A stretch of 42,367 nt of DNA. It comes from a virus (Duplodnaviria > Heunggongvirae > Uroviricota > Caudoviricetes). The notes beneath the pieces are model-generated. The model ran no database searches. It was given only the letters and a program-made list of their open reading frames with translations, and was not told the origin of the DNA. Of the stretch, positions 37,060-41,818 are shown in pieces; within the stretch, counting starts at the first letter, position 1; every line of letters starts with the position of its first letter. The stretch lies in the IMG/VR virus record IMGVR_UViG_2563366848_000004; one strand, 5' to 3'. The translations under genes were made by a program, and so were the position numbers.

Positions 37060-38259
37060 ATGGCTTTGAACCTCGACACGCTGGGGCTATCGGCAACGGT
37101 AACCGCCCAGGGGATTAGTGCGCCTGATTACCAGACAATCCTAGATACACTGACCAGCTATTTCAGGCAGATTTACGGTAGTGATGCCTACCTCGAACCA
37201 GACAGCAAAGACGGGCAGATGGTCGCGCTGGTGGCTCTTGCCGTGCATGACGCTAACAACACCGCTATCGGGATCTACAACTCTTTTTCACCGACGACAG
37301 CGCAGGCCGCAGCGCTTAGCAGCAATGTAAAAATTAACGGGATCACGCGAAAAGTAGCGACAAACTCTACAGCTGACCTTCTGTTAACCGGTACGGCAGG
37401 CACGACTATCTCGAATGGTTCTGCACGGGATAAAAACGGCATAATCTGGAATTTTCCAGCGAGTGTAGCGATCGGCGTTGATGGTACTGTGCTGGTGACG
37501 GCCACATGTGCGAATAGCGGTTCGGTTGCGGCGATGGCCGGGACTATCACCACCATTAACACACCGACTCGCGGCTGGGTGTCGGTAACCAACCCGGCTG
37601 CGGCTACTGTCGGTTCACCAGCAGAAACCGACGCAGAGCTGCGCATTCGGCAGGGGCAAAGCGTAGCGCTATCATCGATCACACCGTTTGAAGGCGTCGA
37701 CGGTGCGATCGCCAACGTTGCGGGCGTGACACGTCACAAGCTCTACGAAAATGATACTGGAGCAACCGACAGCAACGGGTTGCCACCGCATTCAATTTCC
37801 GCCATCGTTGAGGGAGGGGATGTTACTGAAATAGCCCAGACCATCAGGGGGAATAAAGGGCAGGGAACCGCAACTTACGGTACAACTTCTGTCACCGTGC
37901 CGGATACTTACGGTAATCCTCACGTCATCAGTTTTTCGCGTTCTACCGATGTGCCAATTTTTGTAGCCATTACCCTGAAAGTTTTTACCGGGTATACATC
38001 TCAAATCGGCGAGCAGATAAAACAGGCTGTTGCCGATTATATAAATGGCCTGGCAATTGGCGATGACGTTCTGCTGAGTCGCATTTACTCACCGGCGAAT
38101 CTTGGCGTGGTGAGTGGCGGGAATGCACGCTATTACGATATTCAGGAACTGACGATTGGGAAATCCCCGGGGGCTTTGTCGTCATCAAACATTGATATCA
38201 GATACAACGAATCTGCGTCCTGTACACCGGAAAATATCGTTATAACGGTGGAGTCATGA
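37060..38259 (+). CDS. baseplate J-like protein
   Basis: 399-aa ORF; size and position between W-like and I-like genes typical of baseplate J. Confidence 0.7.
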   Translation: MALNLDTLGLSATVTAQGISAPDYQTILDTLTSYFRQIYGSDAYLEPDSKDGQMVALVALAVHDANNTAIGIYNSFSPTTAQAAALSSNVKINGITRKVATNSTADLLLTGTAGTTISNGSARDKNGIIWNFPASVAIGVDGTVLVTATCANSGSVAAMAGTITTINTPTRGWVSVTNPAAATVGSPAETDAELRIRQGQSVALSSITPFEGVDGAIANVAGVTRHKLYENDTGATDSNGLPPHSISAIVEGGDVTEIAQTIRGNKGQGTATYGTTSVTVPDTYGNPHVISFSRSTDVPIFVAITLKVFTGYTSQIGEQIKQAVADYINGLAIGDDVLLSRIYSPANLGVVSGGNARYYDIQELTIGKSPGALSSSNIDIRYNESASCTPENIVITVES

Positions 38260-38936
38260 GCAAATACACCGAACTGATCACGAACTACCACGCCACCAAA
38301 CCTAAATTTCTTGCACATGTTGATCTGATGACCCGGCCGCTTATTGATGTTGCGGCTGCCACCAGAGGGCTGATTACTGCATTTGATATTGACTCTGCGG
38401 TTGGTGTGCAACTTGACATTCTGGGATTGTGGATCGGACGCAGCCGTGTTGTCAGCCAGCCTATCTCAGGTGTTTATTTCAGCTGGGATACCGACGGGCT
38501 TGGATATGATCAGGGTGTATGGCAGGGGCCATACGATCCTGATTCCGGATACATGTACCTCAGCGATGAAACTTATCGTGTCATCCTTAAAGCGAAGATT
38601 GCGATTAATAACTGGGACGGACGGAATGATTCGCTTCCAGCAATTCTTGACGCGGCGACAGCAGGATCCGGACTGCGAATGCAGATAGTCGATAACCAGG
38701 ACATGACGATATCGGTCTGGCTCTTTCCTGATACTGATATTTCAGATGTATCGCGTGAGTTAATTGCTGCAATTAAACAGGGCTATCTCACAGTAAAAGC
38801 CGCTGGCGTCTGGGCCGGTGGCATTGAAATACCCTCGGTGGAAACGCCCAGCGAGGGCACCCGATTCTTTGGGTTCGACATGGACAATGACTATATCGTC
38901 GGTTTCGACGCCGGCGCATGGGGGAAATTACTCTGA
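38256..38936 (+). CDS. tail protein I-like (baseplate wedge/fibre attachment, putative)
   Basis: 226-aa ORF with ATGA-type overlap with neighbours, directly upstream of the tail fibre. Confidence 0.55.
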   Translation: MSKYTELITNYHATKPKFLAHVDLMTRPLIDVAAATRGLITAFDIDSAVGVQLDILGLWIGRSRVVSQPISGVYFSWDTDGLGYDQGVWQGPYDPDSGYMYLSDETYRVILKAKIAINNWDGRNDSLPAILDAATAGSGLRMQIVDNQDMTISVWLFPDTDISDVSRELIAAIKQGYLTVKAAGVWAGGIEIPSVETPSEGTRFFGFDMDNDYIVGFDAGAWGKLL

Positions 38937-39838
38937 TGGCTAAAAATGAATTTAAACCATTTGCAACTGGCTCTGGTGCTAACGTAACAACTCAGACAGA
39001 CTGGGAATCATTACCTGTCCTATCTGCTGGCTTTACATCGGGGAAGGCATCAAGTGCTCAGGTGAACAAAGGTCTGAGGCAAGGAACGGCAATGGCGGCT
39101 GCTGTGGGGCAGTTTATCGCAGATAATACCAATGAGGATGTGAAAGATAATGGTGATATTGCGGGGCTCTCTGCGCAATTAGCGAGTGCGGTAGAGCAGG
39201 CTGCAACAGGACGGCTTATTGGTGTTCGCACAATAACGATATCCGGGACTTATACGCCAACCCCAGGAACGAAAAGCATTATTGTTGAAGTCCAAGGCGC
39301 AGGCGGAGGAGGGGGCGGGGTTGGTACAACTAACTCTACCAGTGTTGCAGTTGGGTGTGGGGGGGGAAGTGGCGCCTACGCTAAATCCCGTATCGCCAAT
39401 TTAGACTCAGCATACACCGTAATTATTGGTGCTGGTGGTGCTGGTGGAGTAAATGGTAATGGAGGGAATGGAGGTAGCACTTCTTTTGGAACGATTACCG
39501 CAGGTGGCGGATATGGTGGTGGTTCAAGTAACTCCGTTCCTCCAATTATCCAGAATGCTTCTGGAATTCCTACAGCCACTGGTGGGAATATCATAAACTT
39601 ATCTGGAAATAACCCTAGCATAGGCATGGCATTTTCTGCCAACGTCATTATTTCGGGAGGAGGTGCTAGTAGTATATTAGGGGCTGGTGGTAGCCCACAC
39701 GGTACAGCAGGCATTGGTAGAGAAGCTACCGGCTATGGTGCTGGAGGTGGTGGCGCAAATGCATATCAAAATAGCAGCGCACAATACAATGGTGCATCTG
39801 GTAGCAGTGGGGTTGTTATTGTCTGGGAGTATGCATAA
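38936..39838 (+). CDS. tail fibre protein with glycine-rich C-terminal domain
   Basis: Start at ATG overlapping upstream stop (MAKNEFKPFATGSGANVTTQTDWESL..., a conserved fibre N-terminus); C-terminal half is Gly-rich repeats (GAGGGGGGVG, GAGGAGGVNGNGGNGG) with lower GC. Confidence 0.75.
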   Translation: MAKNEFKPFATGSGANVTTQTDWESLPVLSAGFTSGKASSAQVNKGLRQGTAMAAAVGQFIADNTNEDVKDNGDIAGLSAQLASAVEQAATGRLIGVRTITISGTYTPTPGTKSIIVEVQGAGGGGGGVGTTNSTSVAVGCGGGSGAYAKSRIANLDSAYTVIIGAGGAGGVNGNGGNGGSTSFGTITAGGGYGGGSSNSVPPIIQNASGIPTATGGNIINLSGNNPSIGMAFSANVIISGGGASSILGAGGSPHGTAGIGREATGYGAGGGGANAYQNSSAQYNGASGSSGVVIVWEYA

Positions 39839-40026
39839 TGAAATACGCTATTATTGAAAATAACATCGTAAAGAATTTGGTTTTATGGAACGGTAAAGGA
39901 GATTTACTTGGTGTGTCACAGCGTTATAAAGTCGATGATGACATAACTGTAAATATCGGAGATGAAGTTAGAGTCAATAATGGAGTGTTAGAAATTGTAA
40001 GTAAATATCCATTTTTCCCATTGTAA
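39838..40026 (+). CDS. small protein coupled to the tail fibre (possible fibre assembly chaperone)
   Basis: 62-aa AT-rich ORF whose ATG overlaps the fibre stop (TAATG). Confidence 0.45.
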   Translation: MKYAIIENNIVKNLVLWNGKGDLLGVSQRYKVDDDITVNIGDEVRVNNGVLEIVSKYPFFPL

Positions 40027-40077
40027 TTTAAAAGATGGGGGTGTCTTCATAGTTGCCCCCACATAGATATCACTATT

Positions 40078-41124
40078 TTATTTGTTATTTTCTTCTAACG
40101 TTATATGTTTGATTGATTCTCTGTTGTAAGTATAAGTTATATGTATTTTCCCATTTGAGCTTTGTATAATCGCAGGATAGGAGAACTCTTTTCCCTCTTG
40201 TGATTCCAGCGTTAACACATTACCCCATGTTTTCCCGTTATCATTAGATCTGGAAATAGACAAGATGCTTCTGTCTTTCCCTGGGTTATGCACAATTAAC
40301 CCTGTACCATCTCGTAATACGATGCCGTCAACACCACTATTAGTTGAGGGTATCGTGCTTTTTCTTAGCGTAGTCCATGAGTGACCACTATCTGATGACT
40401 GAGATTCCATTAATACTCCTTGATCGCTGCGAGTATACATTTTTATCTCATTATCACGGAATTTTAATAGCGTTGGTTGTATAGCTGAGGTGCCTGTAGG
40501 TTTCGATACTTCTATCTTATTAAAATTCTTCATGTTACTGGTTGTTTCTATGTGAACAAACCATCCCTTATCATTCTCCTCACTGGAAGGGAACAAAACG
40601 TTCTTTCCAGAAAGAATTGGCTTGTTTTTTATTGGCCCGTAAATTCCGTTTGGCAATGCTTGTTTTTTACTCCAACTTAACCCATTGTTGGTCGAAGTAA
40701 TATATTTACCTTCCCATGTGCTAGGTGTTTTTCCTACTTTATAGAAAAGGTATGTTTTATTATGTATATTGAATAAAACTGGATTCCATGTAGGAAGCGG
40801 CTTGCCATCCTCACTGCCATAGGCAACAACGCGCGGTTTTGACCATCCGGATTCAGTCATGGAGGATTGCCAAATCTTTACGTCATCATCACCCTCTTTT
40901 GTCCCACCAAACCATGAGACAAGGATGGTTCCATTACTCATCTCTGCAATAGTGCTTGCGTGAGATTCTTTTATCAACCCCAGTGGGAAGATCAATTCTT
41001 GCTTTATAATTTTAAATGTGCTTTCAGCGTGTGCTAATAGTGATAGCTGAAAAGTTAGAAAGCCTAAAATGAAATAAACATATTTACGCATCTTTGCCAT
41101 TCTATAAAAATTTAACATTATCAT
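40078..41124 (-). CDS. secreted BNR/Asp-box repeat protein (sialidase/glycosidase-like), moron
   Basis: 348-aa ORF with AGGGAG SD; N-terminal signal-peptide-like segment ending LLAHA; three Asp-box-like motifs (STNNGLSWS, SSDSGHSWT, SRSNDNGKTWG); AT-rich; opposite strand to the tail genes. Confidence 0.7.
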   Translation of the reverse strand: MIMLNFYRMAKMRKYVYFILGFLTFQLSLLAHAESTFKIIKQELIFPLGLIKESHASTIAEMSNGTILVSWFGGTKEGDDDVKIWQSSMTESGWSKPRVVAYGSEDGKPLPTWNPVLFNIHNKTYLFYKVGKTPSTWEGKYITSTNNGLSWSKKQALPNGIYGPIKNKPILSGKNVLFPSSEENDKGWFVHIETTSNMKNFNKIEVSKPTGTSAIQPTLLKFRDNEIKMYTRSDQGVLMESQSSDSGHSWTTLRKSTIPSTNSGVDGIVLRDGTGLIVHNPGKDRSILSISRSNDNGKTWGNVLTLESQEGKEFSYPAIIQSSNGKIHITYTYNRESIKHITLEENNK

Positions 41125-41192
41125 ATGGTAACACTCCCTGATCTAAAAAAAAACGCTACGTATGGAAACACGCAACGAGCATGCATAGTCTC

Positions 41193-41502
41193 GTCATCAT
41201 GAATCGCCACGGGTTTAACAGACACCTCAGAGTCATTTAAGATGGCTTAAAGAGAGGTGCCCATGAGCGGTAAGCGTTATCCCGAAGAGTTTAAAACTGA
41301 AGCAGTCAAACAGGTTGTTGATCGCGGTTATTCTGTTGCCAGCGTTGCAACACGTCTCGATATCACCACCCACAGCCTTTATGCCTGGATAAAGAAGTAC
41401 GGTCCGGATTCTTCCACTAATAAAGAACAGTCAGATGCTCAGGCCGAGATCCGCCGTCTCCAGAAAGAGCTGAAACGGGTTTGTAGCTTCCTGCCAGCTT
41501 AA
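41193..41502 (+). mobile_element. IS3-family insertion sequence remnant (left end with truncated orfA)
   Basis: TGAATCGCCACGGG... resembles an IS3-family terminal repeat start; followed by an orfA-like HTH ORF that ends prematurely; no orfB or right end present. Confidence 0.45.
41263..41502 (+). pseudogene. IS3-family transposase OrfA fragment
   Basis: MSGKRYPEEFKTEAVKQVVDRGYSVASVATRLDITTHSLYAWIKKYG...EIRRLQKELKRV resembles IS3-family OrfA (HTH plus start of leucine zipper), then diverges into a short non-homologous tail and stops. Confidence 0.5.
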
Positions 41503-41733
41503 TAATTCGCGACCACCATCGGCACCTCGCCCGTCATCCCAGATACGAATGAAATCACCGCGGGCTTCAGGTAATACCAGTGAAGGAAACACTTTCGCCA
41601 GCACAGGGTAATCAGAGGCAGAAAATTTCGCCACGTTGAACTTCAAAAACACCATACTGGACCAGCTGTCGATTACAGTATTTGGCATTGCAGCGGACGG
41701 CCAGAAGAACGGAACGCCAATAGCTGGAGCACC

Positions 41734-41759
41734 TTCTCCCAAACCAACCTTTTTTATAA
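41734..41759. other. hix/gix-like invertase crossover site (degenerate)
   Basis: TTCTCCCAAACCAACCTTTTTTATAA matches hixL (TTCTTGAAAACCAAGGTTTTTGATAA, from memory) at 20 of 26 positions including the AA core; about 60 bp upstream of the invertase start. Confidence 0.35.
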
Positions 41760-41818
41760 CCATCAAAAATCTGGTGATGCTTCGCCGTTTCTCCTGTTTT
41801 CATAACAGGAGAAATCCC

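Follow-up and report, generated by a model that had tools for sequence, protein, structure and literature searches.

A Pam3 gp24-type tail fiber and a coupled 62-residue protein as a probable host-recognition module of a myovirus prophage

The window analyzed here is a stretch of 42,367 nucleotides (nt) from a virus of the Caudoviricetes (IMG/VR record IMGVR_UViG_2563366848_000004), and near its end lies a plus-strand myovirus tail module made up of genes for baseplate J, a DUF2612 wedge protein, and a tail fiber, followed by an open reading frame (ORF) of 62 amino acids (aa). We propose that the fiber and the 62-aa ORF together make up a host-recognition module of two genes in an SfII/SfV-like myovirus prophage and that the 62-aa protein is a translationally coupled chaperone or clamp of the fiber tip, a reading that we consider probable. 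Homologues were found for both proteins, the linkage of their genes across genomes is exclusive, the partner family comes in two or three architectures, and the junction between the two genes is coupled. The fiber is of a type already known; what is new is a tail fiber assembly (Tfa) protein that, by sequence comparison, is reduced to its N-terminal domain and belongs to a large unnamed family.

The fiber and its relation to Pam3 gp24

The genes of the tail module are all joined by overlapping junctions. The ORF called by the program for the fiber runs on the plus strand from 38918 to 39838, which gives a reading of 306 aa. The true start is the ATG at 38936, giving 300 aa, because this ATG overlaps the DUF2612 stop codon (TGATG), homologues begin with MAKNEF, and RefSeq annotates a 903-nt gene in near-identical prophages. 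The features of the module are as follows.

37060-38259, + strand: baseplate J gene
38256-38936, + strand: DUF2612 wedge protein gene
38936-39838, + strand: tail fiber gene of the Pam3 gp24 / Gly_rich_2 type, 300 aa plus stop (homologues, RefSeq, Pfam, profile, AF2/Foldseek)
38936-39211, + strand: N-terminal helical anchor domain of the fiber, aa 1 to 92 (predicted helices, N-domain hidden Markov model [HMM], tblastn)
39212-39835, + strand: TNF-like beta-sandwich interleaved with glycine-rich motifs, aa 93 to 300, presumed receptor-binding tip (27% Gly, AF2, Pam3 gp24 alignment)
39826-39829, + strand: Shine-Dalgarno-like GGAG serving the small ORF, contained in the fiber's last conserved W-E-Y codons (read from the sequence)
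39838-40026, + strand: 62-aa ORF, a stand-alone beta-sandwich module, short form without Caudo_TAP (family HMM, context, hhalign, AF2)

The fiber is an ordinary member of the structurally solved Pam3 gp24 type. Its 306-aa reading matches the Pfam family Gly_rich_2 (PF21722) over residues 109 to 302 with 34.8 bits, compared to a cut-off of 24.3, and 682 relatives were detected, most of them ~300 aa long, in Enterobacteriaceae, Pseudomonas, Burkholderia, and others. A 57-sequence fiber profile aligned with Pam3 gp24 (7YFW and 7YPX) at an E value of 4e-8 over gp24 residues 63 to 275, a span that extends from the end of the helical region through the C terminus and covers the entire C-terminal domain. 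The AF2 model of the fiber (pLDDT 91.9) consists of N-terminal helices (residues 40 to 65 and 75 to 89) and then strands interleaved with Gly stretches. A Foldseek search with this model placed 7ypx_A first (E 5e-11, TM 0.52 to 0.62) and also returned 7yfw_a (E 6e-9), tail-tip chains of mycobacteriophage Bxb1, and, weakly, the ALK glycine-rich domain. The three-domain plan of N-terminal helices, TNF-like beta-sandwich, and glycine-rich lattice is found in both the model and the profile alignment.

In Pam3, the N-terminal helices of gp24 dock on the baseplate, while a TNF-like and a glycine-rich domain with hypervariable distal loops are thought to bind the receptor (PMC9608196). [quoted passage not shown] By description, it can also be likened to TFP_Y of Klebsiella phage SCNJ1-Y and gp27 of phage MMNM, gp24 homologues of ~29 kDa from enterobacterial myoviruses with a Pam3-like TNF and glycine-rich tip (PMC12671077). 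Klebsiella myovirus fibers of this gp24 type and size bind lipopolysaccharide (LPS), and host-range mutations fall in their glycine-rich domain (PMC12671077). The T-even adhesin gp38 (Salmonella phage S16, PDB 6F45) likewise has a lattice of glycine-rich motifs with variable distal loops at a receptor-binding tip (PMC9608196). However, gp38 is a separate tip protein mounted on gp37, with a three-layer lattice and another middle domain, and it was absent from the Foldseek matches of the window fiber model.

The first-pass annotation had described the C-terminal half of the fiber as Gly-rich repeats of lower GC content starting at 39250. The Gly enrichment was borne out, with 56 Gly among the 208 residues from 93 to 300 (27%) compared to 11% in residues 1 to 92, along with the PF21722 match. 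These are glycine-rich motifs rather than repeats: the sole call by Tandem Repeats Finder was a 9-bp unit in 2.3 copies at 39427-39447, and motifs such as GAGGGGGG and GAGGGGA are separated by short strands in the AF2 model. The proposed drop in GC within the gene was not found. Total GC is 0.496 in the C-terminal part versus 0.486 in the N-terminal part, and GC at third codon positions (GC3) is low throughout the fiber (0.37 in the N-terminal part and 0.31 in the C-terminal part, compared to 0.51 to 0.54 in the baseplate genes). The abrupt drop in GC begins instead at the small ORF (0.31) and persists into the sialidase-family gene downstream (0.37). The glycine-rich/TNF-like domain itself begins near 39212. 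A minus-strand ORF of 112 Pro-rich aa at 39376-39714 was judged not to be a gene, being the antisense mirror of GGN glycine codons (NCC = Pro).

By homology to Pam3 gp24, the C-terminal part of the fiber is supported as the receptor-binding, host-range-variable part that it had been taken for, and its receptor is probably LPS. Its restricted distribution agrees with this: although 533 Escherichia coli records share the upstream baseplate DNA, only 3 of the 533 contain this fiber C terminus at the DNA level. The anchor is far more widely shared. An N-domain HMM matched 73 ORFs, one per locus in ~70 of 84 sources, of which ~50 have a C terminus that is not glycine rich. When the fiber was searched against phages by tblastn, matches were confined to the region from aa 1 to ~90-125, and in prophages with other fiber types the N-terminal anchor (approximately aa 1 to 90) is recognizable and is followed by complete divergence. 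One qualification applies to the description of the whole C-terminal half as variable, in that the glycine-rich scaffold as such forms a conserved family of domains and the variation sits in the loops between its motifs. The value of the fiber lies chiefly in annotation and in the prediction and engineering of host range in E. coli prophages.

The 62-aa protein and a family linked to glycine-rich fibers

The start codon of the 62-aa ORF shares the sequence TAATG with the fiber stop codon, and the GGAG motif lies 8 nt upstream of the ATG. The overlap and the length had both been described correctly, as had the small size of the protein, which is about one-third that of the usual Tfa. When the 62-aa protein was used alone in a homologue search, only relatives of at least 84% identity were found; Pfam gave no match, nor did a tblastn search of 50,697 phage records. 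The wider family was reached through a 59-aa ORF at the same position in the related prophage of strain PI24, which has in common with the window protein the N-terminal motif MKYA(I/L)(I/V)EN..V.N..LWNG. Starting from an HMM of these two sequences, we iterated the search and added HMMs derived from individual loci. A leave-one-out family HMM, built without the window protein and its closest allele, scored the window protein at 33.3 bits, compared to a maximum of 10.5 in 2,000 shuffles.

An exhaustive HMM search of 1.84 billion representative sequences returned 7,090 proteins at an E value of ≤1e-3 and 1,202 at ≤1e-10, and the best 150 of the 7,090 matches were mostly 55 to 75 aa long. The family occurs in phages of Proteobacteria and Actinobacteria and comprises ~7,000 clusters at 50% identity. 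None of 61 short members matched Pfam. The PHROGs profile phrog_14370 (63 aa, function unknown in that resource) matches 59 of 61 aligned family members, with E values down to 4e-20, and agrees with them in length and N-terminal motif. It differs in that the window protein, taken alone, matches it weakly (E 0.0065, over the 18 N-terminal residues from 3 to 20), and the PHROG carries no functional annotation or description of context. What emerges is a widespread family of ~60-aa "hypothetical" phage proteins that is linked both to glycine-rich fiber tips and to one domain of known chaperones.

The relationship to chaperones is seen in the architectures of 144 family ORFs, in which a module of ~55 aa stands alone in 59 (57 to 74 aa), carries a helical tail of ~35 aa in 33, and carries a C-terminal domain of ~75 aa in 52. 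In the long forms (130 to 170 aa), the C terminus is Pfam Caudo_TAP (E values from 1e-14 to 6e-34), with DUF4376 in one of them, and a long-form profile matched the tail fiber assembly protein U of phage Mu (5YVQ_B) at 2.4e-16. When the short and long families were compared by hhalign, they aligned over the N-terminal 64 columns with 99.9% probability (E 3e-31). A separate Caudo_TAP-like ORF was found at none of the 59 short-form loci and nowhere in the 42-kb window. On these sequence comparisons, the 62-aa protein is the N-terminal domain of a Tfa-type assembly protein, standing alone. Like the Tfa proteins of the Caudo_TAP family (PF02413; Mu U, P2 G, lambda Tfa; PDB 5YVQ), it is encoded immediately after the fiber and in the same orientation, and it follows their modular plan, in which the fiber is bound by an N-terminal domain; it is homologous to this domain in those Caudo_TAP proteins that are paired with glycine-rich fibers. 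Unlike them, it has no Caudo_TAP domain, the defining conserved part of the family, and its chain stops once the N-terminal module is complete. As an architecture the short form is real, and it makes up 41% of a large family unnamed in public resources.

The medium forms have a tail motif, AEQ...KL.ALGLT.EE..AFG (as at L108 4102-4383, L092 7468-7749, and L149 4082-4363), and mostly follow short glycine-rich fibers of ~250 aa that end in ...EYK.

We next compared what lies downstream of fibers of different types. From contigs representing one genome per species, 80 loci were retrieved with the fiber alignment, and in many of them the iterated HMM found an ORF immediately 3' of the fiber. The 74 with an intact fiber ORF and at least 400 nt of downstream sequence were counted. 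A family ORF lay directly 3' of the fiber at 14 of 20 loci with a clearly glycine-rich fiber, versus 3 of the 54 others (Fisher P = 4e-8), and these three exceptions were low-scoring or frameshifted glycine-rich fibers. An ordinary Caudo_TAP-like ORF was present instead at 33 of the 54 loci whose fibers are not glycine rich. Most of the six glycine-rich loci that scored negative hold, in the same slot, an ORF of a sister subfamily with the motif M.TYARI..G.V.E...HPD.

For a reciprocal test, we scanned IMG/VR with a degenerate DNA motif and obtained 123 family ORFs, nearly all of which abut an upstream ORF whose C terminus is of the fiber type and whose last 200 aa contain 21 to 43% Gly. At the nonredundant junctions, the two genes overlap by 1 nt in 61 of 112 cases and are spaced from -4 to +13 nt in 104 of 112, and a Shine-Dalgarno-like motif is present in 90 of 112. 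These data show that the family is tied specifically to glycine-rich fibers. Among isolated phages, the short form occurs in PY223 and in Bordetella phage PBb001, in the latter in the order baseplate J, hypothetical protein, 293-aa fiber, and 63-aa ORF; in phage Goslar, a long form bears the annotation tail fiber assembly protein.

Several further observations concern fiber/partner loci. The sister subfamily (M.TYARI..G.V.E...(Y)HPD; L012 3930-4136, L064 3951-4175, L069 3658-4068, and L028 3978-4370, each directly after a glycine-rich fiber) is missed by the family HMM and also comes in short (68 to 74 aa) and long (130 to 136 aa) versions, the 130-aa form at L028 having a Caudo_TAP-like motif. 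The last residues of the fiber track the type of partner, with EE[YF]A accompanying long forms in 22 of 23 cases, WE[YF] short forms in 22 of 34, and a terminal K medium forms in 16 of 17, counts that carry no phylogenetic correction. In the actinobacteriophage siphovirus Damascus, which infects Microbacterium, gene 22 encodes a family member and comes after gene 21 (L208 1137-2803), whose product is a 455-aa hypothetical protein and which lies in the interval from the major tail protein genes to the tape measure gene; the fiber/partner pair may be used there at a different structural position.

Proposed role of the small protein and its alternatives

The closest structural precedent for the pair is Pam3, in which the partner gp25 is also encoded directly 3' of the fiber. 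Residues 1 to 55 of gp25 form a beta-sandwich that sits laterally on the TNF-like/glycine-rich junction of each gp24 subunit, and residues 64 to 162 form a helical bundle through which the chaperone trimerizes; the N-terminal helices of gp24 provide most of the trimer interface of the fiber and are able to trimerize without the chaperone (PMC9608196). Modeled by AF2 (pLDDT 85.3), the 62-aa protein has five strands and no helix, and among 350,542 PDB chains searched with Foldseek the top match of this model was Pam3 gp25 (7ypx_a; TM 0.52, root mean square deviation 3.1 Å, 56 columns). Matches in BFVD were to uncharacterized small phage proteins and a few annotated tail fiber assembly proteins or chaperones, none of them significant. 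The window protein may correspond to the ~55-aa sandwich with which gp25 grips the fiber, but it has no counterpart of gp25 residues 64 to 162, the helical trimerization domain, and no detectable sequence similarity to the gp25 N-terminal domain, and the fold match is only suggestive.

We infer that the 62-aa protein binds the fiber physically, acts as its chaperone, and is released or retained after assembly. In the proposed mechanism, the fiber would be a simplified trimeric fiber whose N-terminal helical domain docks on the baseplate and whose TNF-like and glycine-rich domain makes up the tip that binds the receptor; the 62-aa protein, a small beta-sandwich, would be the cognate partner of that tip. 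Translational coupling through the TAATG overlap, with the Shine-Dalgarno sequence in the last codons of the fiber, could ensure that the partner is made in step with the fiber. The 62-aa protein would then clamp laterally on each nascent subunit at the TNF-like/glycine-rich junction and protect the glycine lattice during folding. It has no oligomerization domain, and trimerization would be left to the N-terminal helical bundle of the fiber itself.

Several results weigh against this proposal. In published models, as quoted in PMC9608196, Tfa function depends above all on the conserved C-terminal domain, which the 62-aa protein lacks. TFP_Y of the Klebsiella phage was purified when expressed alone (PMC12671077), so some such fibers may not strictly need a partner. 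The confident alignment of the window protein to its family covers residues 1 to 41 only, its C-terminal hairpin lacking the GW.Y..G.F.P signature. The Foldseek match to gp25 has an E value of 5.4 and is not significant alone, and a search of PDB sequences with the family profile gave no credible match, gp25 included. Lastly, the 62-aa ORF differs from its closest alleles by 4 nonsynonymous and 0 synonymous changes, so that recent purifying selection is not demonstrated; the corresponding synonymous/nonsynonymous counts are 2/8 for the fiber and 1/4 for the sialidase-family gene, and all are too few to inform.

The same substitution counts would fit a 62-aa ORF that is a decaying, nonfunctional remnant of a full-length Tfa, its Caudo_TAP half having been lost upon insertion of the sialidase cassette or an insertion sequence. 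The loss of the family's aromatic signature from the C-terminal hairpin and the rearranged region downstream (an IS3 orfA fragment, a fiber C-terminal fragment, and an invertase) point the same way. Against decay, however, the ORF ends where the short-form members of the family end, these short forms amount to 41% of the family with no Caudo_TAP ORF nearby, and PI24 has an independent 59-aa short form in the same slot. In addition, the 51-nt spacer before the sialidase-family gene holds no Caudo_TAP remnant, GC is uniformly low along the whole ORF, clusters found on 144 and 222 contigs retain the length of 62 aa, and the AF2 model is a complete and confident fold. Because the short form is common and has the same end point, the PI24 short allele is independent, and no remnant of Caudo_TAP lies downstream, we regard a remnant as decidedly unlikely.

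A permanent place on the virion, where the small protein would serve as a fiber accessory (a cap, stabilizer, or coadhesin) that takes part in or masks receptor binding, is rather unlikely in our view. TfaMu is reported to stay on the Mu fiber, possibly binding LPS, and the chaperones of Alteromonas phages have been proposed to be transient caps (PMC10579305). Without a bulky trimeric C-terminal domain over the tip, a lateral module of 7 kDa need not block the distal loops, and in the comparison with PI24 the partner changes along with the distal half of the fiber. On the other hand, gp25 went undetected in Pam3 virions (PMC9608196), and the linkage data do not discriminate between the accessory and chaperone models. 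Scarcely credible, and largely refuted by the context statistics, is the idea that the small ORF arose by chance or is tied functionally to the sialidase-family gene as a lysogenic-conversion or regulatory peptide. Its GC of 0.31 is indeed nearer to that of the sialidase-family gene (0.37) than to that of the fiber (0.49), and the three genes move together. However, the family follows glycine-rich fibers across many genera and also in viral contigs with no sialidase nearby, the PI24 homologue is paired with an acyltransferase instead, and the small ORF is on the fiber strand, coupled to the fiber and convergent with the sialidase-family gene. A chance ORF is countered by the leave-one-out score of 33 bits, compared to ≤10.5 for shuffles.

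Should the short form work as a chaperone, as the clamp model supposes, it would offer a natural minimal construct with which to ask which half of Tfa is needed, and a compact aid when glycine-rich receptor-binding proteins are to be expressed recombinantly or engineered. We offer more tentatively the generalization, which may well prove wrong, that minimal single-module chaperones or clamps are a very large unannotated class and that for Pam3-type fibers the Caudo_TAP or helical C-terminal domain is dispensable and lateral clamping is the essential function.

Mosaicism and downstream genes

Alignment with related fibers had been suggested as a way to locate a recombination breakpoint, and two breakpoints were found, neither of them where the N-terminal and glycine-rich domains meet. 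They are listed here with the features downstream of the module.

38915-38916: left cassette breakpoint, 20 nt 5' of the fiber ATG (mismatch pattern versus ET776, PI24, and E89)
39395-39415: recombination breakpoint within the glycine-rich domain, aa ~154 to 160 (mismatch pattern versus PI24)
40078-41124, - strand: BNR_2 sialidase-family gene (Pfam BNR_2, E 4e-70)
41257-41502: IS3-family orfA fragment
41431-41766, - strand: tail-fiber C-terminal fragment
up to the window end (42367): Hin/Pin-type invertase

Mismatches to strains ET776, PI24, and E89 are dense across 38804-38915, and there are none directly from 38916 on. Compared to E89, the DUF2612 gene is 65 to 87% identical, while the sequence from 38916 through the sialidase-family gene is ~99% identical. 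The fiber, the small ORF, and the sialidase-family gene thus travel as one low-GC3 cassette between different prophage backbones. PI24, by comparison, has 4 mismatches across 38916-39394 (~100% identity), and from there mismatches are dense up to the fiber's end (63 to 85%), after which come its own small ORF (59 aa, 38% identical), an acyltransferase gene, and intS. From the mismatch patterns against PI24, E89, and ET776, we therefore place one breakpoint 20 nt 5' of the fiber start and the other within the receptor-binding domain, and neither at the anchor-tip boundary. The fiber and its partner are thus swapped as a unit, and breakpoints can fall within the receptor-binding domain. The divergent patch at the 3' end of the DUF2612 gene (~110 nt, 38804-38915; 63 to 80% identity to ET776, PI24, and E89) has the look of a scar left by recombination or of a region coadapted to the fiber N terminus.

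A 51-nt spacer separates the 62-aa ORF from the convergent sialidase-family gene. It contains an inverted repeat, TGGGGG(14 nt)CCCCCA, at 40036-40061 that may be a bidirectional terminator; the consensus scan missed it, as the plus strand has no T-run right after the stem. Near the small ORF, the promoter/terminator scan gave no signal above the shuffle expectation, and Rfam had no match within 38800-41400. NCBIfam has no model for the fiber, the small ORF, the sialidase-family protein, or the DUF2612 protein.

The sialidase-family gene has a GC of 0.37 and encodes a protein with a signal-peptide-like N terminus that is distant from solved sialidases (E ~3e-6). In ET776 and E89, it is ~99% identical together with the fiber and the small ORF, and in the related PI24 prophage its slot is occupied by an O-antigen-type acyltransferase beside intS. 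The gene is not functionally part of the fiber system. To our knowledge, E. coli is usually said to be without a sialidase, and this prophage-borne gene of the sialidase family may merit separate attention. The pair formed by the fiber fragment and the invertase is common in E. coli, but in no complete genome is it joined to the sialidase-family gene. It appears to be a remnant of an invertible fiber segment from another element.

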